From Escherichia coli (GTDB lineage: Bacteria; Pseudomonadota; Gammaproteobacteria; Enterobacterales; Enterobacteriaceae), in NCBI RefSeq assembly GCF_001677475.2, contig NZ_CP015229.1: a DNA stretch of 64,000 bases; one strand, written 5' to 3'. The position numbers and the translations under genes are program-made. Below, in pieces: positions 6,641-35,912 of this stretch. The notes beneath the pieces were generated by a model that saw nothing but the letters and a program-made list of their open reading frames with translations, was not told the DNA's origin and searched no databases. How positions within the stretch are numbered: position 1 is the stretch's first letter; every line of letters starts with the position of its first letter.

Positions 6641-7942
6641 TTAACGTTTTCCGCTGTGCAACCAGAACGGTTCCTGATTGTTTGCCTCATTACGGAAATG
6701 TTCAATTTCAATGCGTTGACCGGTCGCAATAGCGTGATGCAGCCCCTGCCAGTTCTCCAGCCAGGCTTGCGCGACGACAGGATTGTAGTAACCCGCCAGC
6801 AACAATATCGAATCAATATCACGCGTCAGGCGTGGCAACTGGTCATGGTAGCGATCGCCTAACGGCTGGCAGAAAACGCTTTTCAGTTCCGCGGCATGGC
6901 GGGAAAGATGGATATCGGCAAAGCGTTTGAAGGAATCGCTGATTTTGCCCTGCGCTTTGGCATCTAAAAACGGCTGCCAGGCTTTGCTTACCAGCCATTC
7001 GGTCAACGCCAGCTTCGCCATCGCCGTTTCGGTAGAGTAGACCGCCGTTACGGCAGACACCGCAGAAGCGATGGTCGCTTCGCATTGAGTCAGTAAATCA
7101 CGTAAGTGAGTGCTCGCTTTACGCGGCACAATGCCACCGAACAGCATCAGCGTATGGCGAACAAGGCCAATGGCTGCCAGCACCTGCTCTTTCGCCGCAT
7201 CGTTGCCGCGTACCCACAGTTCTTCATGATACTGCCATTGCGCTAACGCCAGCTCGAGCGCCGCTTCCAGCCCCTGTTCCACATCAGCTTTTGCCGCAAC
7301 ATGCAAAATGGTGGTCGGTTTGATTTCACGCGCGGGATTGCCCTGCGCCAGATGATAGCCACGCGCCGCTTTGCTCAGGCTGCCCTGGCGTAATCCGGTT
7401 TGCGATACCAGTTGGTTCGCCAGTTTCAGCACCGCGCGCGTGTCGCCGCTAAGCAGTTCCAGTTCCAGCTCGCAGATAGGTTCAGCAAATTCACCCGCTT
7501 TCACTTCCCCCTGGTCGAGGGCGATTTCAATTTGGCTACCATCAACCTCTACCAGCCACTTTTCGCGATAAAAATCGGTGCTGAACAGCGGTTGTACGCG
7601 GGAAGCAAGATCGGCAGGCAATTCGCCGTTCGGCCAGACTTCCGTCGGTAACTGCGCCAGGTCGAGCGTCGGTTCGCTCAACGCCACGTTATATTCCGGG
7701 CGCTGGTGTAAGCCGCCTGTCACTCTTCCTGCAACTTTCATGGTCATCTCATAGCGACCGTTTTCGCCACGAATACGCAAGCCCATGTCGTGCCCACGCA
7801 GCCAGTTATCCGGCGTTTCGTAGTAAATATTCAGCAACTGCACGGGGTCATGGTGCTCGCCGCCCAGCGTATTGAGATGGTCACGCAACGCCTCAACGGC
7901 ACTGTGATTAACAATAAACTTTAATTCGATTTCCTGAGCCAT
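6641..7942 (-). CDS. ygiF: Inorganic triphosphatase (CYTH domain)
   Basis: 433-aa ORF starting [11 protein letters not shown]; conserved ygiF-glnE-hldE arrangement. Confidence 0.88.
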
Positions 7943-22475: not shown

Positions 22476-22551
22476 GGCCCCTTAGCTCAGTGGTTAGAGC
22501 AGGCGACTCATAATCGCTTGGTCGCTGGTTCAAGTCCAGCAGGGGCCACCA
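22476..22551 (+). tRNA. ileX: tRNA-Ile (anticodon CAU, lysidine-modified)
   Basis: 76-nt sequence ggccccttagctcagtggttagagcaggcgactCATaatcgc...gggccacca folds as a canonical cloverleaf with CAT anticodon and encoded CCA; its 3' 46 nt are repeated at 36093-36141. Confidence 0.92.
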
Positions 22552-23641: not shown

Positions 23642-23652
23642 AGTGCGCTACG

Positions 23653-23973
23653 TTACTTGTCTTTATTCGGCTGCAACTTATCCGGCACATTTCCGGTAGT
23701 TTCCATCAGGTAATCAGCCAGTATCTGTGGGAGGTTGTCGGCAACTCTGGCACTGGCATTACAGGCTTTAACCACTTCCCTTTTAAGCCCATCCAGCATA
23801 GCGGGGGTAATGTGTGGGAAGCTCCTTTGCATAGTAAGCGGGAGGCTGTCCATGATTGATGAAATCTGACTCGCCAGTTTTGAAAGCGCGTACATGCAAA
23901 ACTCTGTATCAATCACGTCACCGCGATCGCGCTCGTTTTTAAGTTCCTGCGCCTCCGCCTGTGCTGTCAGTAA
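23653..23973 (-). pseudogene. Small terminase subunit (lambda Nu1-like), C-terminal fragment separated from its N-terminus by the IS insertion
   Basis: Translation ...AQAEAQELKNERDRGDVIDTEFCMYALSKLASQISSIMDSLPLTMQRSFP... parallels lambda Nu1 C-terminal region (...AQADAQELKNARD...ETAFCTFVLSRIAGEIASILDGLPLSVQRRFP...) from memory. Confidence 0.7.
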
Positions 23974-24085
23974 TCTGATCCTGACTCGTAAGTATGAGAC
24001 GACAATAACTCAGTCCGCCTGGCGCCGATTATTCTGGCCGGTTTTGTAACCTGAGTGTCATTTACATGATCCAACAGGAAATGGC

Positions 24086-25465
24086 GTGACGCTCAATACT
24101 TCTCAGGTCAGTTACTATATGACTCAGCGTAAGAAAGGTATAACTCAGCATATCTCGGCCATGAAGGCTGGTATCTCAGTCCGTTCTGGTCGTCGGATCG
24201 AAAAAGGAGAGTGGGCAAAAAACAGTGTTCGGCACTGGCGCACACGCAAAGATCCTCTGGAAGCTGTGTGGGACAGCATGCTTGTTCCTCTGTTGAAAGA
24301 GAGGCCGGCTCTGACACCAACAACTCTACTGGAGATGCTACAGGATAAATATCCCGGCCAGTACCCCAACAGCCTTCGAAGAACAATGCAACGGCGGGTT
24401 CGCGAATGGAAACTACAGTATGGTACAGAGCAGGAGGTCATGTTCCGCCAGCAACATCAGCCCGGCCTGCGAGGCCTGTCGGACTTTACTGAACTGAAAG
24501 GTGTAGTTGTCACCATCGCCGGTAAGTTGTTGGCGCATAAGTTGTATCACTTCCGTCTGGAATGGAGCCACTGGAGCTGGATGCGGGTTGTTCTGGGTGG
24601 TGAGAGCTTCTCTGCTCTGGCTGAAGGCCTGCAGGAAGCCCTCGGACAACTGGGCGGAGTGCCGGTAGAACATAAAACGGACAGCCTGAGGGCAGCATGG
24701 AAACAACAGGGCGAAGATGGACGCCGCGAGCTGACTGAGCGTTATGCTACTCTCTGTCAGCACTACGGAATGCAGGGCGTACACAATAATGCCGGTCGGG
24801 GCCACGAAAATGGCTCGGTTGAAAGTGCCCACGGACATCTGAAAAGGCGTATCTGTCAGGCGCTGATACTGCGGGGCAGTAACGACTTCAGCACCATAGA
24901 AGAATATCAGGCCTTCATCACTCAGCAGGTTATGCGGCACAACCGTAACAATCAGGATCTGGTCAAGGAAGAACGTCTTCATCTGAAACCGCTGCCGCTT
25001 CGTCGCAGTGCTGACTATGATGAGCTGACTGTGAGGGTTAGTCGCAGCAGTACCATCAATGTGAAGCACGTCGTCTACAGCGTACCTTCCCGGCTTGTAG
25101 GTCAACTGTTACGGGTCAGGTTATGGGACGATCGTCTGAGCTGTTACGTTGGCAGCAGCGAGGTCATGAGCTGCCCTCGCGTCAGACCAGAAAAAGGGAA
25201 GACGCGGGCCCGTCGTATCGACTTCCGACATGTGATCGACAGTCTGGCAAAAAAGCCCGGTGCGTTCTGCCATGCAACGCTGAGAAATGACATCCTGCCG
25301 GACGATGAATGGCGGAGGCTGTGGCGTCGCTTATGTAATCATCTGGAGCCCGATATGGCAGGAAGGCTGATGGTACATGCCGGGAAACGTGGATCTGCAC
25401 CGGCTGATGCGCTTCCTGGGTATAAAAGAAAAGGCGTTGCCGGTAGTCAATGTGATACAGCATAA
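24086..25465 (+). CDS. istA: IS21-family transposase IstA
   Basis: 459-aa ORF (GTG start) with N-terminal HTH and DDE-type catalytic region; sits immediately upstream of an IstB-like gene. Confidence 0.8.
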   Translation: MTLNTSQVSYYMTQRKKGITQHISAMKAGISVRSGRRIEKGEWAKNSVRHWRTRKDPLEAVWDSMLVPLLKERPALTPTTLLEMLQDKYPGQYPNSLRRTMQRRVREWKLQYGTEQEVMFRQQHQPGLRGLSDFTELKGVVVTIAGKLLAHKLYHFRLEWSHWSWMRVVLGGESFSALAEGLQEALGQLGGVPVEHKTDSLRAAWKQQGEDGRRELTERYATLCQHYGMQGVHNNAGRGHENGSVESAHGHLKRRICQALILRGSNDFSTIEEYQAFITQQVMRHNRNNQDLVKEERLHLKPLPLRRSADYDELTVRVSRSSTINVKHVVYSVPSRLVGQLLRVRLWDDRLSCYVGSSEVMSCPRVRPEKGKTRARRIDFRHVIDSLAKKPGAFCHATLRNDILPDDEWRRLWRRLCNHLEPDMAGRLMVHAGKRGSAPADALPGYKRKGVAGSQCDTA

Positions 25466-25510
25466 CCTGAGCAGTTATGAGCAACTACTGCGTGGCAAGG
25501 GAGGTTCGCA

Positions 25511-26266
25511 GTGAGCAATATCCATCACCTTGAACATAGCCTGCGTAAACTACGCCTGACACGAGTTGGAGCTGAATGGCACGCTCTGGAAAAACGAGCG
25601 CTGGCAGAAGGCTGGACACCATCGCGCTATCTTCTGACGCTATGCAATGAAGAACTCCTGTGGCGCGAGAGTGAAAAACTGCGTCGTTATAAAAAGGAGG
25701 CCCGGTTGCCAGTTGCCAAAACGCTGAGCGAATACGACTTCAGTCAGGTGCCGGAACTGAATGGAGCTCAGTTCCGGCAACTCTGTGAAACGACAGACTG
25801 GGTTGATGCAGGAGAAAACGTTCTGCTGTTCGGAGCCAGCGGGTTGGGGAAAAGCCATCTGGCGGCAGCGATCGTGGATGGCGTAGTAGGTCAGGGCTAC
25901 CGGGCCCGGTTCTACAGCGCAGGAGAGCTGTTGCAGGAACTACGTAAAGCCAGAGCTCAGTTGAAACTGAATGAGCTGCTACTGAAACTGGATCGCTACC
26001 GGGTGATAGTGGTGGATGATCTTGGCTATGTCAAACGCGATAGTGCCGAAACGGGTGTGCTGTTCGAGTTAATAGCGCATCGCTATGAACGTGGGAGCCT
26101 GGTGATAACCAGTAACCATCCGTTCAGCATGTGGGGCAGCATCTTCGTGGATGAGACTATGGCGGTGGCTGCGGCAGACAGGCTGATCCATCACGGATAT
26201 ATGTTCGAACTGAAAGGGGAAAGCTACAGGAAAAAGACAGCGAAGGCAGTAACAAGCGCGACTTGA
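25511..26266 (+). CDS. istB: IS21-family helper ATPase IstB
   Basis: 251-aa ORF with Walker A (GASGLGKSHLA) and Walker B (VIVVDDLGY) motifs; RBS gggagg upstream of GTG start. Confidence 0.85.
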   Translation: MSNIHHLEHSLRKLRLTRVGAEWHALEKRALAEGWTPSRYLLTLCNEELLWRESEKLRRYKKEARLPVAKTLSEYDFSQVPELNGAQFRQLCETTDWVDAGENVLLFGASGLGKSHLAAAIVDGVVGQGYRARFYSAGELLQELRKARAQLKLNELLLKLDRYRVIVVDDLGYVKRDSAETGVLFELIAHRYERGSLVITSNHPFSMWGSIFVDETMAVAAADRLIHHGYMFELKGESYRKKTAKAVTSAT

Positions 26267-26325
26267 TGTCGCCCTGAAGGGTGCGGCCAGTATAGTTGGC
26301 GCGAGTCGGCAAAACTAGTTGACGT

Positions 26326-26526
26326 CTAATATCGTAAGAGTTCATCATCATCAATCTCGCCTTTGTCGTTTGTAAGCTGGCTAATTGCATTGTTAACCCT
26401 ATTGTCTATCACGCTGGCAACATCATAAAACGCCTCACGGCCTTTACGTTCAACGGGAGTCACTCCCCACTTGTCGAATGCTGTAGCACTTACCCGGCAG
26501 CTTTGCGCCATGGTTTTTTTGTTCAT
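26326..26526 (-). pseudogene. Small terminase subunit (lambda Nu1-like), N-terminal fragment truncated at the IS boundary
   Basis: MNKKTMAQSCRVSATAFDKWGVTPVERKGREAFYDVASVIDN... parallels lambda Nu1 N-terminus (MEVNKKQLADIFGASIRTIQNWQEQGMPV...); ORF ends exactly at the IS junction. Confidence 0.7.
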
Positions 26527-26639
26527 CAGGTGCGATTTCATCAATATCCCAACTTGGTCAAGGTTTCAGGTTGGTGTGTTGGTGTTATCTTTCCCTTTTT
26601 ATTCATGGAGATAGAGCAAACAACAAAACCACCACCACC

Positions 26640-26745
26640 CCCCTGAAAAAGCTCATAAATAGCGAAAAACCGCGAGGTCGCCGCCCCGTAACGGGTCCAT
26701 ATGCCGGAAAGGACCCGTAAAAAAAGCCGGATTTCTCCGGCCTTG
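26640..26745 (-). other. Lambda-type cos site (cosN with flanking terminase-binding region)
   Basis: Minus strand reads ACGGGTCCTTTCCGG...CGTTACG-GGGCGGCGACCT-CGCGGTTTTTCGCTATTTATGA, nearly identical to the phage lambda cohesive-end region as I recall it (GGGCGGCGACCTCGCGGGTTTTCGCTATTTATGAAAA); lies ~150 nt upstream of the Nu1-like start. Confidence 0.75.
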
Positions 26746-26747
26746 TC

Positions 26748-27161
26748 TCAGATGGTTTTCAGTATGCGATCGATGTCGCCATCATCGCCCGGGTTTCTGC
26801 CAGCGTATGCCATACCAGCTGATACGGCTTTCGGGCTGTGCATGTCCATAAAGTTTTCAAAGGCTGCGGTAAGCTCTGGTGCAACCTTCTGGCGTTCCTG
26901 CTCTATGGTCATGCTAAGGATGCTTTTAGCCGTACCAACATCGATACAAGGCACGTTTGCCATTGCACGTAACAGCGGCTGATAGTCGCCAGATTCATCA
27001 AGCGCCATAATCGCATCAGAGCGCGGCTTGTCCTTCTCTTCCAGGCTGTTAAGTTGATATACGGCCTCGTAGGTTGATAAACCTCTGTCAGCCATTGCCC
27101 GCGCTTCGGCCTTAAATTTACTCGCCAGCGGTAGCGTCATGATGCTTTCATTCGTTGCCAT
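26748..27161 (-). CDS. Hypothetical protein (137 aa) between decoration-like gene and cos
   Basis: ORF with no motif I recognise; co-oriented with capsid genes. Confidence 0.55.
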   Translation of the reverse strand: MATNESIMTLPLASKFKAEARAMADRGLSTYEAVYQLNSLEEKDKPRSDAIMALDESGDYQPLLRAMANVPCIDVGTAKSILSMTIEQERQKVAPELTAAFENFMDMHSPKAVSAGMAYAGRNPGDDGDIDRILKTI

Positions 27162-27173
27162 CGTTCCCTCTGC

Positions 27174-27509
27174 TTATCGGGCCAGTGGCTGAACGGATAC
27201 GCCAGAACCCGCAAAGGCGGCGCATTTTTTCGCATCGGTGTCGACGCTCTCAGGCCAGTTAACGGCGGCGATATTAAATATCCCCGTCTTATAGCACTGT
27301 GCTGATTTCTGCGTCGACGTGTCAACGGGGTACGAGGTCAGATAAACAGCCTTGCCAGATTCCTGACCATCCCACGGCTTAAACTCGCCATTTTCCGCCA
27401 GCATCAGCGGGGTAAATTCCTGAATAACTCCAGCATCAGCGGCAAAATGTACCAGCGTCGTGGATACCTGCTGACTGCCTGCAAATAACTCAATGTATGG
27501 AGTGTTCAT
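27174..27509 (-). CDS. Head decoration protein (lambda gpD-like)
   Basis: 111-aa ORF, size and position next to an E-like capsid gene match lambda D (110 aa); assignment by context and size, weak sequence recall. Confidence 0.6.
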   Translation of the reverse strand: MNTPYIELFAGSQQVSTTLVHFAADAGVIQEFTPLMLAENGEFKPWDGQESGKAVYLTSYPVDTSTQKSAQCYKTGIFNIAAVNWPESVDTDAKKCAAFAGSGVSVQPLAR

Positions 27510-27520
27510 AGAATCCCCCG

Positions 27521-28576
27521 TTAAGCAATTTTGACGGTAACAAATTTGCGAATATCTGCCGGTACCGGCTGCGGTGCGCTGTGCGTCTGCACGTACTCAA
27601 TCGCCGGATCGCCATCCTCAATCCAGTTTTTCGGGTAGTACATGTTTTGCGTTGCGCCAGTTCTTACCGCTTCCGGATCCATAATCGCACCATAGGCCAC
27701 CAGCCCTTTATTGTTAGTGTTGCCCAGGACAAGCAAATCAGGCTCAAGGAAATATTTTTCGGTGCCATCGCTGTCGGTGTATTTGCCGGAATAGACGATA
27801 AGGGCCAGATCACCCAGATAGCCTTTAAAGCTCACCACTTCGCCCAGGTTTTTACAGGCCAGCTCTGCGGCGGATTCTGAACCACGGGAAAGATCGTACA
27901 GTTCACGGAATTTTTTAAAGCTGCGTAACGTGCGCCATACCTCAGCGCCCATAATCATGACGTTGGCGGGGCAACCAGCCTGATCGGTGTATAGTTCGAT
28001 GTCATAGATTGGATCGTGTGTTTCCTTATCTGCCTCAGACCACTTTTTGCCCGATCCCTGCGTAATGATGTTTTTAGTCGGGATTTTCCAGTCGATTTCG
28101 TATCTATTTATTCCTTCGCCCTCAATGATGTTTTTTCCGGTCGTGACCGCATTCACCGCCAGCCATTCTATGCGAGCTTTAATAGCGTTTACCTGGCGGC
28201 GCATGTTGCCAGTAATCAGGCGCATACGGCGATAAGTTGGATCGTTAAGCTGTGCCGGATCTTCTCCAGCCATGCGCATGATGGTTTTTGATGGATCGAT
28301 TTCGTGTTTTGGTTTCATATAGCCAGGGCGGATAGTGCTTGTTTCGTACCCTTTATCGCGCTGAACCTGACTCCCCACCATAGGCGAACAAAAAGCCGAC
28401 ATGGTGACTTCTTCAATATCCAGGGTATCTAACATGATGTCCTGCGTGTTGAAGGTTGCCACGTTCGGGAAAAACAGCGACGTAAACAGCGGACTGAATT
28501 TAAATTCCGAAATATCCCCACGATTCAGGTACGCGAAAAGCTGGTTAGTGTTAAGTGCCGTTGCTTTGCCTGTCAT
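27521..28576 (-). CDS. Major capsid protein (lambda gpE-like)
   Basis: 351-aa ORF aligning along its length with lambda E from memory: FKFSPLFTSLFF / FKFDPLFLRLFF, PGYMKPKHEIDP / PGYVKPKHEVNP, YSGKY...LVLGNTNN...YPKNW / YSGQY...MVLGNTQA...YPKNW. Confidence 0.8.
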   Translation of the reverse strand: MTGKATALNTNQLFAYLNRGDISEFKFSPLFTSLFFPNVATFNTQDIMLDTLDIEEVTMSAFCSPMVGSQVQRDKGYETSTIRPGYMKPKHEIDPSKTIMRMAGEDPAQLNDPTYRRMRLITGNMRRQVNAIKARIEWLAVNAVTTGKNIIEGEGINRYEIDWKIPTKNIITQGSGKKWSEADKETHDPIYDIELYTDQAGCPANVMIMGAEVWRTLRSFKKFRELYDLSRGSESAAELACKNLGEVVSFKGYLGDLALIVYSGKYTDSDGTEKYFLEPDLLVLGNTNNKGLVAYGAIMDPEAVRTGATQNMYYPKNWIEDGDPAIEYVQTHSAPQPVPADIRKFVTVKIA

Positions 28577-28815
28577 TATTCACCCCCATGAGTCTGATTC
28601 ATGCCCAGCGCCGCGCGTAAATAGGCGCGTACCTGCCAGCCTGTTGACGGCTCAACCATCGCCAGCGGCTCAAGTCCTGCCGCAATGCCTGCTTTTACGT
28701 TCTGCTGGTGGCGTTCCTTGAGCGCCTCCACGATGTCTGGGCTTATGTAAACTGTCACCCCGCCTTTTTTCTCTTCTGCCATAGTCGGAAATTCCTCTTT
28801 GACGTTAAAAATCAC
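28576..28815 (-). CDS. Hypothetical small protein translationally coupled to the capsid gene
   Basis: 79-aa ORF (possibly starting at internal MAEEKK); stop shares one base with the capsid ATG. Confidence 0.5.
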   Translation of the reverse strand: MIFNVKEEFPTMAEEKKGGVTVYISPDIVEALKERHQQNVKAGIAAGLEPLAMVEPSTGWQVRAYLRAALGMNQTHGGE

Positions 28816-28846
28816 AACTGGATGTTCATCCAGTTGTGATTATAAT
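28811..28846. promoter_or_regulatory. Perfect 14-bp inverted repeat plus TATAAT box upstream of the capsid operon
   Basis: atcacaactggatg-tt-catccagttgtgat immediately followed by tataat; read directly. Confidence 0.45.
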
Positions 28847-28951
28847 CATGATTTCATTTTACGCAATAATGTTGAGTTGTGTTGCAAATTGTGAAATGAT
28901 TTCCGGCAACAGTAGTCACCATACTGTTAGATAAAAGCCTCATATGCAAAA

Positions 28952-29028
28952 GCCCGATAAGACCCTCTGACCTTATCGGGCTTTTTTTGGGGCATAAAAA
29001 AGCCGGACTTCTCCGGCTTCTGTTACTC
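28952..29028. terminator. Pair of intrinsic terminator hairpins between the SSB gene and the capsid operon
   Basis: gcccgataag...cttatcgggc followed by T-run; and gccggacttctccggc flanked by A-run / T-run (functional on minus strand). Confidence 0.55.
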
Positions 29029-29033
29029 GTTGC

Positions 29034-29456
29034 TTAAAACGGTATGTTATCCCCGTACGGATCATCGTTACCCGCCTGTTGTTTTGCCCTGTTCAGTGCG
29101 TCAGTAGCCTGCCCTTGCTGGCCTTTTTTGCCGCCCGGTCGCGCCGTTCTCGCACTGATTACGCTGTCTGCGATAACCTGCCAGCCCTGCCGCGTTTCGC
29201 CGTTCTGGCCTGTCCACTGGCTTACCTGCATGTTACCCGCCACGCTCACCAGTTCGCCTTTGTGGTGTTTTGCCAGTGCGTCGGCCTGTCTGCCAAACGC
29301 CAGGACGGATAACCACATCGTCGCCGTTCCGTCATCTGCCTGGCTGCACGGAAGGGGGACCGCCATACTAGCCATCGTCATTTGTGTACCCTTGCTGGTG
29401 GTCTTTAACTGCGGGTCAGCCACCAGCCGCCCGTAAGCCGCTATCTGTGCTGTCAT
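29034..29456 (-). CDS. Single-stranded DNA-binding protein (island-encoded SSB)
   Basis: 140-aa ORF; Gly/Gln-rich linker and acidic C-terminal tip ...DDPYGDNIPF resembling the SSB C-terminal DDDIPF motif. Confidence 0.75.
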   Translation of the reverse strand: MTAQIAAYGRLVADPQLKTTSKGTQMTMASMAVPLPCSQADDGTATMWLSVLAFGRQADALAKHHKGELVSVAGNMQVSQWTGQNGETRQGWQVIADSVISARTARPGGKKGQQGQATDALNRAKQQAGNDDPYGDNIPF

Positions 29457-29698
29457 GCTGTCTGCTCTCCGGTTTTAACGTTGATGGTTGTCACCTGTTC
29501 CGCTTCGGCAATCTCCCGTTCTGTCAGCGTGGCAAAGTTTGCAGCTGCCGTTGTCATGAATGCGCTAATCAGTTCGGGATGTGCTTTCGCATATCCTTCC
29601 CCGGCGTTGCGGTCGATGATTTTTATCGACACCCTTAACCAGTGTTCCGTCAAATCAAGGGCGTGCGATTGTGATTTTTTTGTGTGCTTCGCTGTCAT
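29453..29698 (-). CDS. Hypothetical protein (81 aa), coupled to ssb by ATGA overlap
   Basis: ORF directly downstream of the iteron array; no recognised domain. Confidence 0.5.
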   Translation of the reverse strand: MTAKHTKKSQSHALDLTEHWLRVSIKIIDRNAGEGYAKAHPELISAFMTTAAANFATLTEREIAEAEQVTTINVKTGEQTA

Positions 29699-29742
29699 AG
29701 GCTTTATCTCACAGCAGTAAATTAAAATTTTTGCGTTTTAAC

Positions 29743-29971
29743 CCTTCACCTGTTCACCTTTTGATATTTTCCATTTAAATTCATACTGTTAAGGGGTGAA
29801 CAGTTTCACAAAAACTATTCACCAACTGTTCACCACTGTTCACCCTTGAAGCTCAATAAACAACCAAAAAGGTGAACAGTGAATAGTTTGGTGAATAGTT
29901 CATAAATAACTGTTCACCCTATAATATACTGATATAAAAGATATTTATGACAGGGTGAACAGTGGTGAACA
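29743..29971. repeat. Iteron array (P4 ori/crr-type TGTTCACC octamers)
   Basis: Perfect TGTTCACC at 29751, 29827, 29837, 29911 and its complement GGTGAACA at 29795, 29871, 29954, 29964, plus degenerate copies (tattcacc, ggtgaata), within ~230 bp immediately 3' of the primase gene. Confidence 0.8.
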
Positions 29972-29985
29972 GTTATTCCATAAGT

Positions 29986-31803
29986 TTAATTTTTGCTATC
30001 GTCATTAGTGACTGATACACATGATGGCATCCAGTCTTCTGATTCCTCCGTCAGTGTCACGTTTGAACGTAAACCGTGCTTCGTTTTCCGTTTTATATAC
30101 TCCCTGCCATATTCCGCCATTGCCCCAGGCATATCTTTACCGAAGCGCGTCAGTGTTACAGGTTTACCAAACCCATGAGCCCTCATATAAGCCAGATAGG
30201 CATGATAGAGATACCTGCGCGGGCTGAATGGCACAATTTCAGCATTACCCACTAACAGGCCATCACACATTACCGACGCCATGAGATAGCCGCAGAAGTC
30301 CACCAGCGAATCCCCCTCTCGCTTTATCGCCAGTGCTTCTTCAGATTTCTGCTGCTCATATAACAGGCGTCTGGCTTCGTCCTGGTCAGCAAACCTTGTA
30401 AGCAGATGGCGAATCACTACCGCCAGCTCACCTTCTATTTTTTCCGCCAGCATCGGATCGCGTTCGTTCTCCGGTACAACTTCCGAAAAATTGAATATCA
30501 CCCGACGACGTGAGATCCCCCCGCTGCGGTCACTGAATGACATGGCGTTATTGTTAACCGCCAGCACTACTGCCGGAATACGCGTTGAGTAGGGGGCTTT
30601 GTGTTTCGGGTCAATTGCCACCTTGTCACCGCCTGTAATGGCCTTAATTCCTGCCCCATCACCAGCGTAGCGGGTCATATCCGGCATGATAATCAGCGAA
30701 AAGCCAACCACTAACGCGCGTTCCCTTGCATCTTCCAGCGCCTTCATGCTTGCCGATACTGTGTTGGCCTTACCCGCCAGCATGGTGCAAATCTCCGCCA
30801 TCACGCTTTTACCACTTCCCCCTGGACCTGTTACCTCAATGAATAACTGCCAGTCGTACCGGTTCGCCAGCACCATGAATAATGCAGCCAGTACGCGATC
30901 CGCCTTGCGGTCATTCTCAGCCACCGAACGGCGTAACCACTTCCAGAAATTCGGCGCATGTGTTGCCAGCGTTTCCCCCTCTGCTGGTGGGCTGAAAGGT
31001 AATTCACTGGCAATTAACAACCAGTCGTTTTTGTTATGCTCCCGAAAATTACCTGTTCTGGTATCAAATACCCCGTTACTGAATCCAATCAGGTTACGGG
31101 CTGTATTCCCCATTACAGGCAAACTTAACTTCATGGTATCGACCGCCGATTTAATGGCGTTCTGCGAATAGCTGATCTCCGCATCAATGAAAATCTGCGC
31201 CATAGCACGCTGTAACTCTTTATCCTGAACCGGCTCCCATACAACGCCGTTGTAATGGTGAACAGTGTCAGAGTCAGCATGAATCGCCAGTTCACCGCCA
31301 TAATGTGCCAGGAGAACTTCGCCGCGTTGACTTGCTCCCATCTGGTTAAGCGCCAGTGATGAAGCGTTATCGTCTTTTACCCGCTCTTTTTTCTTTACAG
31401 GCAGTTCAACTACCTTTTTCTTTTCCGCCAGCTCTGCCCGTTCACGTTCCAGATATTCGCGCCAGTTCTCCCGTTTCTGGCTGTGCATTCCTTCAGGATA
31501 ATAATCAGCATCCCTGACACCTGCCGCTGCCAGTTTCTGCCCGATGGTATTAACAAGCCCCGGACGCAATAACCCCGCCTGGTAGAGACGCACACGATAG
31601 CGTCCGTCCGGTACGATTTGCAGGTTGTCCAGTTCGGCAAGTTGTTGCTCTCCAAGCCAGACAGGAGGCACGTTATCGCCAGCCAGTCGCCCGTCCTGTT
31701 CCTGCCACTGCTTCGCATGTGCCCACGCATCACTACCCGCAAAAATGATGACTTCCGTCATTTTGTCACGTGGCTGGTGTTTTAAATTTGGCGCTTTTTT
31801 CAT
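29986..31803 (-). CDS. Satellite replication protein (P4 alpha-like primase-helicase, D5-type NTPase)
   Basis: 605-aa ORF (likely start MKKAP with ATGA overlap to upstream gene); Walker A GPGGSGKS; adjacent to TGTTCACC iterons. Confidence 0.75.
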   Translation of the reverse strand: MKKAPNLKHQPRDKMTEVIIFAGSDAWAHAKQWQEQDGRLAGDNVPPVWLGEQQLAELDNLQIVPDGRYRVRLYQAGLLRPGLVNTIGQKLAAAGVRDADYYPEGMHSQKRENWREYLERERAELAEKKKVVELPVKKKERVKDDNASSLALNQMGASQRGEVLLAHYGGELAIHADSDTVHHYNGVVWEPVQDKELQRAMAQIFIDAEISYSQNAIKSAVDTMKLSLPVMGNTARNLIGFSNGVFDTRTGNFREHNKNDWLLIASELPFSPPAEGETLATHAPNFWKWLRRSVAENDRKADRVLAALFMVLANRYDWQLFIEVTGPGGSGKSVMAEICTMLAGKANTVSASMKALEDARERALVVGFSLIIMPDMTRYAGDGAGIKAITGGDKVAIDPKHKAPYSTRIPAVVLAVNNNAMSFSDRSGGISRRRVIFNFSEVVPENERDPMLAEKIEGELAVVIRHLLTRFADQDEARRLLYEQQKSEEALAIKREGDSLVDFCGYLMASVMCDGLLVGNAEIVPFSPRRYLYHAYLAYMRAHGFGKPVTLTRFGKDMPGAMAEYGREYIKRKTKHGLRSNVTLTEESEDWMPSCVSVTNDDSKN

Positions 31804-32099
31804 TTCTGCTCTCTCCACGCGGCAATCATGTTTTTCAGTTCCTGTAGTTTTTTATCAACATCCATACATGACACATGGTTATTTCTGGAAGGCGGGATTT
31901 CCCGCCGGAATCTGCAAATAAAGATCTCCACGTTCAGCGAGCTATGAAATGAATAGCCATCACGAATAAAATACACACGGTCAAACATTATCGATTTTAC
32001 TGTTACTCTGTTGCCGTTCTTATCCCGATAAATAGCGCCGGGGATAATTTTGGGATGTGCATAACCGCTGGCAGTCAAGCCAGATAAATACGTTCTCAT
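31800..32099 (-). CDS. Hypothetical protein (99 aa)
   Basis: ORF translationally coupled to the primase gene; no recognised domain. Confidence 0.5.
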   Translation of the reverse strand: MRTYLSGLTASGYAHPKIIPGAIYRDKNGNRVTVKSIMFDRVYFIRDGYSFHSSLNVEIFICRFRREIPPSRNNHVSCMDVDKKLQELKNMIAAWREQK

Positions 32100-33786: not shown

Positions 33787-34507
33787 GGGGGTGAACAAGT
33801 TCAAACGAAGAATATTTATCAGGTCTTGGTGGTTGTGCTCCTGATTCTTTAATCCATTTATCCAGAGTGTTTTTACTTACTTTCCCATGATAGTAAACAG
33901 AAAGCTCGTTCAATAAACCTGTTTTACTGGCTTTAGGGTACTTTTCCCATGTTAGTTTAATTACGTGCATAACTTCATTGTAATAATGATTTCTTGGTTT
34001 GCGCGCTTTTTCTTTCTGTGATAAGGATAAAGCATCTTTTATTTTTTTATCTTTTTCATGGTTCGATATAATTTCTTCAAAAAAGTCATTAAGCAATAAC
34101 TCAACACCAACCCTAGTAAGTTTGTCTGCGTGATTACGCATTCCGACATGGTACAATGCAACTGCTGAATTTAAAGTATCGACAACCTGACAAGATAGTT
34201 TACTATCAAATATTAAAAAACCACATGAATCCATTCTTATAGCTAATTCAATAGGATATTGCTCGATTTCTCTTAATTCTAAACCATAACACAAAAGAAA
34301 TTCTCTTGTTGGATACTTTGATTTATAAAAATAATCTCTTATATCATCAATCAAGCGTTTTATAGCCTCTATGGTGGAGTTTTTCGGGGATAAAGATACA
34401 GGAACGTTTAAAACTGAAGAGTCTCGCCCACCAGTAATTAAATCATTCATAACCGAATAAATAATATATTGTTTGACCGATATATTGTTATCACCCATAT
34501 ATGTCAT
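33782..34507 (-). CDS. AT-rich orphan protein (241 aa) in the integrase-proximal cargo position
   Basis: Long ORF with visibly lower GC than the rest of the island; overlaps the int stop; no motif I can recognise. Confidence 0.6.
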   Translation of the reverse strand: MTYMGDNNISVKQYIIYSVMNDLITGGRDSSVLNVPVSLSPKNSTIEAIKRLIDDIRDYFYKSKYPTREFLLCYGLELREIEQYPIELAIRMDSCGFLIFDSKLSCQVVDTLNSAVALYHVGMRNHADKLTRVGVELLLNDFFEEIISNHEKDKKIKDALSLSQKEKARKPRNHYYNEVMHVIKLTWEKYPKASKTGLLNELSVYYHGKVSKNTLDKWIKESGAQPPRPDKYSSFELVHPQ

Positions 34508-35912
34508 TCTTTTCTTGTACTATAGCAAATAGTAAACGACGTTTTTCATCATCACTCATGCCCTCCAGTGCGGAAAGTAATTGCGCATCGATAGATTTTT
34601 TACTCTCCACCAGCCCGGCATGTTCCAGAATTGCCCGTTCTATCCGTGATGCTGGCTCCAGCAGTTCATCAGCACCGAAATGTAAATACCCCTGCGTTAC
34701 GTCGGCACTTCGCATAGTGCGGTGATTCATCAGGCGCTTGAGGATGTAATTACCCACGCCCACCAGCTCAGCAACCGTTCCGAACGTCCGGCGTGCGTCG
34801 TGCCACTTAAACGGGACAGGGAAGAGCATTTCATCGTTCGCCTCAGGAATGGTAGCCGCGCTTATCCGGTCTATGATGTGCCGTGTCTCCTGAATCACTC
34901 CCTTCACGCCAGGAAACACCAGCACATCATCAGCAGCTTTGTTTTTTAGCCTGCGAAGAAACATTTTCCGCAACGTATCAGTGATCGGCAGTTCAAGCGG
35001 ATCCCCGTTTTTCGTGGTGTCTATCCAGAAAAAGCGACCGCCCATATTCACGCGATCCCACGTAAGGCCAAAAACTTCTGATTTCCTCAGTCCGGTAAAC
35101 AGTGCCATTTCCACGGCATCACATACCGTAACAGCTATATCATCCCTTTCCTGTTCGCCCTGGTCGCGCACAGCAGCTACAGCAGCAAACCAGCGGGGAA
35201 AATCATGCAGGCGGATACGTTCCGTTTTTCTTACCGTTCCGTGCCACTGGCGCTTGGTGCTCAGTACCAGAGTCGGCGGATCCGGTAAAAGAGTATTACC
35301 CGCATCATCACGGTAATGATCATGCGCAAACCGACACACAGCACGTAGCGCACGCGCCCATAAATCGGCCTGTGCCTTGCTTCCTGTACCAACCCCAGCC
35401 CGTAACGTGGTTTTATCAGCACCGAACCATACAGCCCCATCAGTGATGGCCTTATGCCGTTGTTCCACCCGTTCGCGGGAAATACTGGCGAGGGTATGGG
35501 CCATCCAGTCACCGGAATAATTCTGTAATATGCTGCGGTACTGTTTTTCTGTGGAGGGTTTCAGGCGGTGGCCACGATTTTTTACGTAGGCGTCAATCGC
35601 CTCACTCAGCGTTATCATGGCCTTGTTGTTAGTGCGCTTTGCTATGTTCGGATTTATCCCCGTTGTGGCGACTTCGCCAAGGAGTTCCATAGCTTTAGCC
35701 CTGGCATTATCCACGCTCAGATCAGGAAAACGCCCCAGCGTTGCACGAATAAATTTTCCGTTACGCTTACGGGAAATGCAGAAACTTTTCACACCAGACG
35801 AACCTACACGGACACGCAGCCCGTTAACCTCCGTATCACCATATTCGACCTGTCCATGTTCCGGCGTTGGCAGTTCTGCAATTTTTACTTTAGAGAATCT
35901 GAATAATTTCAC
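34491..35912 (-). CDS. int: Tyrosine site-specific integrase
   Basis: 473-aa ORF from a GTG start; catalytic signature region (LRKSE..., WHDARRTFGT, ...QGYLHF) with an N-terminal arm-binding-like domain. Confidence 0.85.
   Translation of the reverse strand: MKLFRFSKVKIAELPTPEHGQVEYGDTEVNGLRVRVGSSGVKSFCISRKRNGKFIRATLGRFPDLSVDNARAKAMELLGEVATTGINPNIAKRTNNKAMITLSEAIDAYVKNRGHRLKPSTEKQYRSILQNYSGDWMAHTLASISRERVEQRHKAITDGAVWFGADKTTLRAGVGTGSKAQADLWARALRAVCRFAHDHYRDDAGNTLLPDPPTLVLSTKRQWHGTVRKTERIRLHDFPRWFAAVAAVRDQGEQERDDIAVTVCDAVEMALFTGLRKSEVFGLTWDRVNMGGRFFWIDTTKNGDPLELPITDTLRKMFLRRLKNKAADDVLVFPGVKGVIQETRHIIDRISAATIPEANDEMLFPVPFKWHDARRTFGTVAELVGVGNYILKRLMNHRTMRSADVTQGYLHFGADELLEPASRIERAILEHAGLVESKKSIDAQLLSALEGMSDDEKRRLLFAIVQEKNDIYG

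Follow-up and report, generated by a model that had tools for sequence, protein, structure and literature searches.

The stretch of DNA analysed here (64,000 nt, hereafter the window) is part of an E. coli chromosome, recognizable from dnaG, rpoD and mug, and carries an island of ~13.5 kb between a tRNA(CAT) gene (22476-22551) and a tyrosine integrase gene (34491-35912). The minus strand is the sense strand for all island genes. Read in that direction, the integrase gene is followed by regulators, a DUF4222 protein, a D5-type primase, an 81-aa ORF and ssb, with primase, 81-aa ORF and ssb making up the replication block. A short hairpin (T2) stands after ssb, and beyond it come a second hairpin, a promoter-like region, and a capsid-like operon consisting of a 79-aa ORF, a capsid gene, a decoration gene and a 137-aa ORF. 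A second copy of the short hairpin (T1) follows the 137-aa ORF, and is itself followed by a cos site and a "terminase small subunit" gene (Table 1).

Table 1. Genes and sequence elements of the island around the two short hairpins, in window positions
Feature	Position	Strand	Details
ISEc10-like IS21-family insertion	23993-26331		98-99% identity to ISEc10 of CFT073; 7-bp target duplication TCGTAAG
Lambda-type cos core	26675-26716	-	cosQ GGGTCCT, 26710-26716; cosN GGGCGGCGACCT, 26675-26686
T1 U7 tract	26719-26725	-	A-run of 7 on plus strand
T1 hairpin	26726-26741	-	plus strand GCCGGATTTCTCCGGC; minus-strand RNA GCCGGA-GAAA-UCCGGC
Capsid-like operon	26748-28815	-	from Pfam, PHROGs and RefSeq annotation of relatives
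137-aa ORF	26748-27161	-	without Pfam match
gpD-like decoration protein	27174-27509	-	Pfam HDPD, E=5e-18
Lambda gpE-like major capsid protein	27521-28576	-	Pfam Phage_cap_E, E=3e-52
79-aa ORF, capsid operon	start of operon	-	68 aa from 28782 in relatives' annotation
Perfect 15+15 palindrome	28810-28841		AATCACAACTGGATG tt CATCCAGTTGTGATT; overlaps promoter candidate
Candidate capsid-operon promoter	28810-28866	-	-35 TTGCGT, 28866-28861; 16-nt spacer; -10 TATAAT, 28844-28839
Second, longer hairpin past T2	28952-28981		stem GCCCGATAAG/CTTATCGGGC; sense: A7 on one side, T4 on the other; antisense T7
T2 U6 tract	28996-29001	-	A-run of 6 on plus strand
T2 hairpin	29002-29017	-	plus strand GCCGGACTTCTCCGGC; minus-strand RNA GCCGGA-GAAG-UCCGGC
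ssb, last gene of replication block	29034-29456	-	Pfam SSB, E=4e-16
Primase	29986-31818	-	Pfam D5_N, Pox_D5 and DUF5906 domains

Integrase, a primase-type replication module, a lambda-like cos, a c1499-like capsid gene and a c1500-like decoration gene are all present, and by this gene content the island is a phage-inducible chromosomal island (PICI) of the EcCICFT073 family. EcCICFT073 is the model Gram-negative PICI: it encodes homologues of a capsid protein (c1499) and of a decoration protein (c1500), has two cos sites that are both functional, and carries the gene for Rpp beside cos1 (PMC6092414, PMC6739421); its induction by helper phage and its high-frequency transfer have been shown (PMC6092414). 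The two islands share the order int, regulators, DUF4222, primase, ssb, (perC), c1499-like, c1500-like, 137-aa ORF, cos1, rpp-like, and are 92% identical in DNA over 26645-29018. Moreover, EcCICFT073 (L194) has both hairpins at the same junctions, one with a GCAA loop after perC and one with a GAAA loop after the 137-aa ORF, abutting cos1. In contrast to EcCICFT073, the window island has neither perC nor a second cos, is integrated beside the tRNA(CAT) gene and not at the site used in CFT073, and has an rpp-like gene split by an insertion sequence. This ISEc10-like element (istA, 24086-25465; istB, 25511-26266) interrupts the Rpp/"terminase small subunit"-like gene downstream of cos, leaving flanks at 23652-23992 and 26332-26541; the gene is uninterrupted in a related island (L001). 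Given this insertion, the packaging-redirection gene of the window island is probably inactive. In the two publications on EcCICFT073 (PMC6092414, PMC6739421) the word "terminator" occurs 0 times in each, and these hairpins go unmentioned.

RefSeq names the 137-aa ORF that closes the capsid-like operon "phage head-tail connector protein" or leaves it hypothetical. In PHROGs the ORF matches the C-terminal part of a head maturation protease (phrog_53, residues 494-568 of 583, E=1e-8), a match that suggests a Nu3-like scaffold domain. Its homologues all come from E. coli (38/38), and every full-length one is at least 82% identical, so that no deep comparison is possible.

A sequence-only reading of the window had described two nearly identical hairpins flanked by A/T runs, one beside cos and one beside the ssb stop codon. 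Both are present at exactly the positions in Table 1, with the A-runs preceding them on the plus strand; T1 is adjoined by a lambda-type cosN and cosQ, and T2 lies next to an ORF that Pfam identifies as ssb. T1 and T2 are the only matches to GCCGGAYTTCTCCGGC with up to two mismatches in the 64 kb window, where 0.10 would be expected, and none of 100 shuffles contained two or more matches. The looser pattern GCCGGA-N3-6-TCCGGC also matches only T1 and T2 in the window, against an expectation of 0.00. Outside the hairpin and the T-run, T1 and T2 have nothing in common. The same reading had placed them at "island junctions". This holds in the sense that both lie where one module meets another inside the island, but neither marks a junction between island and chromosome.

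The anatomy of both hairpins is that of an intrinsic terminator of minus-strand transcription. On that strand, both U-tracts lie 3' of the stem: T1 reads GACAAG-GCCGGA-GAAA-UCCGGC-UUUUUUU-AC and then runs into cosQ, and T2 reads ACAGAA-GCCGGA-GAAG-UCCGGC-UUUUUU-AUG. Each stem has 6 bp, five of them G-C pairs, closed by a 4-nt loop (GAAA in T1, GAAG in T2). The predicted folding energy of T1 is -10.4 kcal/mol for the core and -14.1 kcal/mol with an A:U extension; the corresponding values for T2 are -10.3 and -15.3 kcal/mol, the extension being formed by upstream A residues pairing with the first U residues. T1 lies 6 nt past the stop codon of the co-oriented 137-aa ORF, the last gene of the capsid operon, and T2 lies 16 nt past that of the co-oriented ssb. 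In the plus-strand direction, the tails CTTGTCTC and TTCTGTTA are poor, with no usable T-tract.

A strict scan of the window, requiring a perfect GC-rich stem of at least 6 bp followed by at least 6 T in 8 positions, listed three terminators in 64 kb, and T1 and T2 are two of them. A consensus terminator scan of the window listed neither. Because the strict scan and the folding both find the two hairpins, this omission is probably due to greedy extension of the stem into the U-tract through pairing between the A-tract and the U-tract. A search of Rfam 15 over 26300-29800 gave only sub-threshold chance matches, the best scoring 26.7 bits against a gathering score of 60. Like Rho-independent terminators, T1 and T2 have a short GC-rich stem lengthened by an A-tract on its upstream side, a tetraloop that is of the GNRA type in most copies, a U-tract that follows at once, and a location just past a co-oriented stop codon. 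They differ from them in nothing structural; the oddity is that one exact stem is reused two to three times per island in many gene contexts. By these features, T1 and T2 are ordinary terminators of a known island family, termination itself being what we infer from them.

The region downstream of T2 contains further candidate signals. The longer hairpin that lies directly past T2 has a predicted folding energy of -23.1 kcal/mol in the sense orientation and -20.1 kcal/mol in the antisense orientation, and the region spanning T2 and this hairpin has a folding z-score of -5.5. Relatives share the outer stem GCCCGATAAG/CTTATCGGGC without change, whereas the 8-12 nt inside it differ from island to island. 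This hairpin may be a tandem, bidirectional terminator. Given that T2 stands directly before a hairpin with an antisense T7, the replication block would be closed by a tandem, partly bidirectional stop. The candidate promoter of the capsid operon follows. The perfect palindrome that overlaps it is kept with small changes in IHE3034 (L002) and CFT073, and may be the operator for a regulator of the capsid operon.

Taken together, these features probably reflect intrinsic terminators that split the island into insulated units, with T2 working together with the second hairpin. In the proposed arrangement, T1 and T2 would act as Rho-independent terminators of the minus-strand transcripts of an EcCICFT073-family PICI. 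T2 would end the replication block (primase to ssb), and T2 and the longer hairpin would insulate the capsid-like operon, which would have its own promoter. T1 would end the capsid-like operon 2 nt before cosQ, so that transcription would not cross cos1 into the downstream rpp-like gene. Three units would result: first the replication block, then the capsid-like operon under a promoter and an operator of its own, and finally cos1 together with rpp.

The position of T1 raises a different possibility, that it is part of the packaging signal (an extension of cosQ/cos1, recognized by Rpp-TerS or serving to end packaging) and not primarily a terminator. The gap between the U-tract of T1 and cosQ is only 2 nt. 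Moreover, among the fetched loci, the hairpin abuts 71 of 122 distinct cos-like sites. The remaining cos-like sites are mostly of the inverted cos2 type of EcCICFT073, and the published cos2, which is inverted and lies between rppA and the last gene, has no hairpin beside it although it is functional (PMC6092414). The cos core of the window is the counterpart of EcCICFT073 cos1, as established by comparison with the right end of lambda, phage PhiR5_1 and the CFT073 island (PMC6092414, PMC6739421). Homology between the island and the cos regions of lambda, PhiR5_1 and an Stx2 phage starts at the T-run and cosQ, and these phages have ATCATTATCAYTTT in the place of the hairpin. No hairpin was found upstream of cosQ in lambda, PhiR5_1, the Stx2 phage or mEp460. 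Its absence from these helper-phage cos regions, which function without it, speaks against the hairpin as a cos subsite (cosQ, cosN or cosB). Nor does the hairpin derive from helper phages, as none of these four phages carries it.

Other cos sites point in the same direction. In five loci, representing three distinct hairpin sequences (L120 at 5435, L126, L141 at 10121, L170 and L192), cos is abutted by GGCGGC-N4-GCCGCC and T6-7, following a different last gene. The arrangement of last gene, predicted terminator and cosQ is therefore conserved even where the stem is non-homologous. Since a different hairpin occupies the equivalent site before cos, it is the architecture and not the sequence that is conserved, which argues for a terminator function as opposed to a sequence-specific role of GCCGGA. 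In addition, T2 and many other copies of the hairpin are not beside any cos. A primary role of T1 in packaging is thus very unlikely, and termination is the preferred reading of T1 at this site. In lambda, late transcription must cross cos, passing from the lysis genes into Nu1. Helper phages consequently cannot place a terminator before cosQ. A satellite needs no transcription across cos, and it is in keeping with this that PICIs have the hairpin and phages lack it.

Some relatives place T2 beside a cos as well. In ~17 of them (e.g., IHE3034 [L002], L120 and L131), a second complete cos region, of another phage type, comes directly after the T2 hairpin; in IHE3034 it lies ~170 bp past the ssb terminator. 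This second cos is 88-92% identical to the cos of the Stx/VT1-Sakai phage (and to that of Stx2) and is related to the genome end of mEp460. In phages, the Stx/VT1-Sakai-type cos is flanked by Rz on one side and the small terminase gene on the other, with no hairpin. No second cos was found in the window island.

To place T1 and T2 in a wider context, related islands were collected by scanning IMG/VR with the capsid protein, yielding 80 islands at 92-100% protein identity, to which 2-3 RefSeq islands were added. The stem GCCGGA/TCCGGC occurs in ~170 copies across the 80 IMG/VR loci and the RefSeq islands, with two to three copies per island, and the same stem is found two to three times in each of >100 related islands. 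Every copy past the end of an island gene points in the sense direction and has T5-T9 behind it; for T1-type copies, the run in relatives has 6 to 9 T. The copy after the 137-aa ORF has a GAAA loop in 76/76 cases. Between ssb and the capsid operon there are 93 copies, with loops of GCAA, GTAA, GAAA, GAAG or GAAAA. The stem is almost invariant, and divergence is too shallow for covariation since the family is nearly confined to E. coli. Three single-base variants of the stem occur, of which two (C to U) keep G.U pairing in the sense RNA only and one is disruptive. In many copies, a CA-rich run (ACACACA or ACACATA) lies just upstream.

The gene neighborhoods of these copies vary. In a capsid-forming PICI of O157:H7, the hairpin follows perC at the junction between replication and morphogenesis genes; in the capsid-forming PICI of O157:H7 strain 611 (L195), a frameshifted "trigger factor" pseudogene annotated by RefSeq at 6963-7078 overlaps the hairpin after perC, and is almost certainly an annotation artefact over a putative terminator. 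Relatives of the replication module without a capsid gene have the order ssb, hairpin, cos among the matches listed in a pattern scan. In L014, the hairpin at the T2 position is degenerate or a hybrid, and similarity breaks off partway through its stem. Islands with three copies (L007, L025, L109, L113 and others) have an extra ORF between ssb/perC and the capsid operon, and two hairpins 363-364 bp apart, each closing one small gene. Phage morons are cassettes of promoter, gene and terminator inserted between phage genes. The accessory genes of the islands, such as perC-like ORFs in the interval between ssb and the capsid operon, resemble morons in that each is followed by its own copy of the hairpin. 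They differ in that one terminator stem is common to all of the island cassettes, which is not a described property of morons.

As a perfect inverted repeat, the 16-bp palindrome of the hairpin could also be taken for the operator of a dimeric regulator or for a REP-like repeat, the latter because the E. coli REP consensus also opens with the hexamer GCCGGA. However, the loop varies from 4 to 5 nt, which would shift the spacing of half-sites. In addition, the T-run is always present on the sense strand, and stem variants are compatible with G.U pairing. REP and BIME elements are imperfect palindromes of ~35 nt that every E. coli carries by the hundreds in its core genome. In contrast, the hairpin is only 16 nt long and is absent from most E. 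coli genomes. With 16 nt, two copies in 64 kb, both within the island, and absence from 77-83% of genomes, REP identity is rejected. The operator reading of the hairpin is rejected on loop-length variation and distribution. Either role is extremely improbable.

The distribution of the hairpin bears on whether it is a terminator of the host. Among 5426 complete E. coli genomes, BLAST counts of the GAAA and GCAA forms only, each counted as hairpin plus at least about 4 T, found the GAAA form in 912 genomes, at a median of 1 and at most 5 places in each, and the GCAA form in 1249 (median 2, maximum 10). These forms are thus absent from 77-83% of complete E. coli genomes. Every E. coli copy inspected sits in a PICI. 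In ~130 kb of flanking chromosome and prophage DNA, there is one further match to the stem, within a tail gene, and none of 50,697 phage records yielded a lambdoid phage with the hairpin. On these counts, the hairpin does not serve E. coli as a generic terminator of the host. The sequence-only reading had named a hairpin common throughout the genome as a finding that would speak against its proposal, and in E. coli this is not what is seen.

In a wider sense, the design itself is generic. The matches listed from IMG/VR include at least 47 loci that have the 16-mer with its T-run but show no match to PICI proteins; these represent at least 27 contexts with a median GC content of 38%, and the loops are of the GNRA type at 47/48 of the non-PICI IMG/VR sites listed. 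At least 120 stretches of DNA from a wide variety of bacteria also contain one such hairpin and T-run each, where ~2 would be expected by chance. Convergence on this exact hairpin design is, on this evidence, demonstrably possible in unrelated bacteria and phages, and identical stems alone are therefore no proof of duplication. These occurrences are consistent with T1 and T2 being independent, convergent generic terminators of optimal design, with no common ancestry and no link to module boundaries. This explanation is nonetheless unlikely, since ~80% of E. coli genomes and the lambdoid phages lack the hairpin, and the ~130 kb of flanking DNA inspected contained a single extra stem match, whereas PICIs carry two to three copies per ~10-13 kb, after 11 kinds of upstream gene end. 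Shared ancestry within the family is favored by three things in combination, namely the number of copies per 10-13 kb, the confinement of the E. coli copies to PICIs, and the variety of gene contexts, and we infer common descent of the T1 and T2 copies. On this view, T1 and T2 would both stem from a single junction hairpin used throughout the family: its stem GCCGGA/UCCGGC does not vary, its loops are mostly of the GNRA type, and a U-tract follows.

Module junctions were compared across related islands by clustering the 40-nt flanks, left and right, of all unique PICI copies. These 118 unique contexts fall into 11 upstream clusters and 19 downstream clusters, joined through the hairpin in 38 combinations. 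The ends of ssb, perC and another ORF reach the same downstream block exactly at the hairpin, and the ssb end leads via the hairpin to several unrelated downstream blocks, including the tandem terminator and two types of cos. The sequence-only reading had proposed that the hairpins are duplicated terminators or recombination scars at module boundaries, and had suggested a comparison of this kind; the outcome supports that proposal, given that the hairpins have all the sequence features of intrinsic terminators and that the stem recurs two to three times per island where unrelated blocks join. The PICIs of this family would carry the junction hairpin at each module boundary, with modules and cos sites shuffled on either side.

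There are parallels with lambdoid phages, for which Susskind and Botstein are said to have put forward the idea of modular evolution. Mosaic lambdoid phages have conserved boundary or "linker" sequences at module junctions. As with these linkers, the island hairpin is a short conserved sequence exactly between interchangeable modules that occur in many combinations. One difference is that the island element is itself terminator-like and is specific to PICIs and not to their helper phages; recombination at the hairpin is hypothetical.

It is possible, though doubtful, that the hairpin is a terminator and also the actual crossover site, acting through linker homology or as a template-switch structure, at which accessory genes, capsid modules and cos sites are swapped. 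The hairpin is the exact meeting point of upstream and downstream blocks that are unrelated, and the lambda-type and the Stx/VT1-Sakai/mEp460-type cos regions both begin right past a copy. The similarity break in L014 falls inside the hairpin, and the capsid module is bracketed by two copies, with capsid-less relatives reading ssb, hairpin, cos. However, a conserved functional element between variable modules would yield the same pattern without any crossover there, and 16-25 nt is short for homologous recombination. Loop identity follows the upstream and the downstream flank to the same degree (H(loop|up)=0.78, H(loop|down)=0.72; permutation, 780/2000), and the position of a crossover could therefore not be located. 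That the hairpin is a dedicated junction, at which E. coli PICIs of the EcCICFT073 type and the capsid-forming type swap accessory and morphogenesis modules and capture helper cos sites, seems rather unlikely. If it were true, modular evolution and helper range across a whole satellite family would be under the control of a 16-nt element.

Current views are unchanged by the presence of the hairpins. What the analysis offers is a concrete annotation of operon boundaries for a well-studied PICI family, with three apparent insulated units and a putative terminator 2 nt from cosQ. This annotation may be of use in engineering such islands as delivery vehicles and in interpreting island expression. 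The occurrence of one hairpin at every junction of modules and cos is, in addition, a small, testable pointer to the shuffling of modules and cos sites in these satellites.
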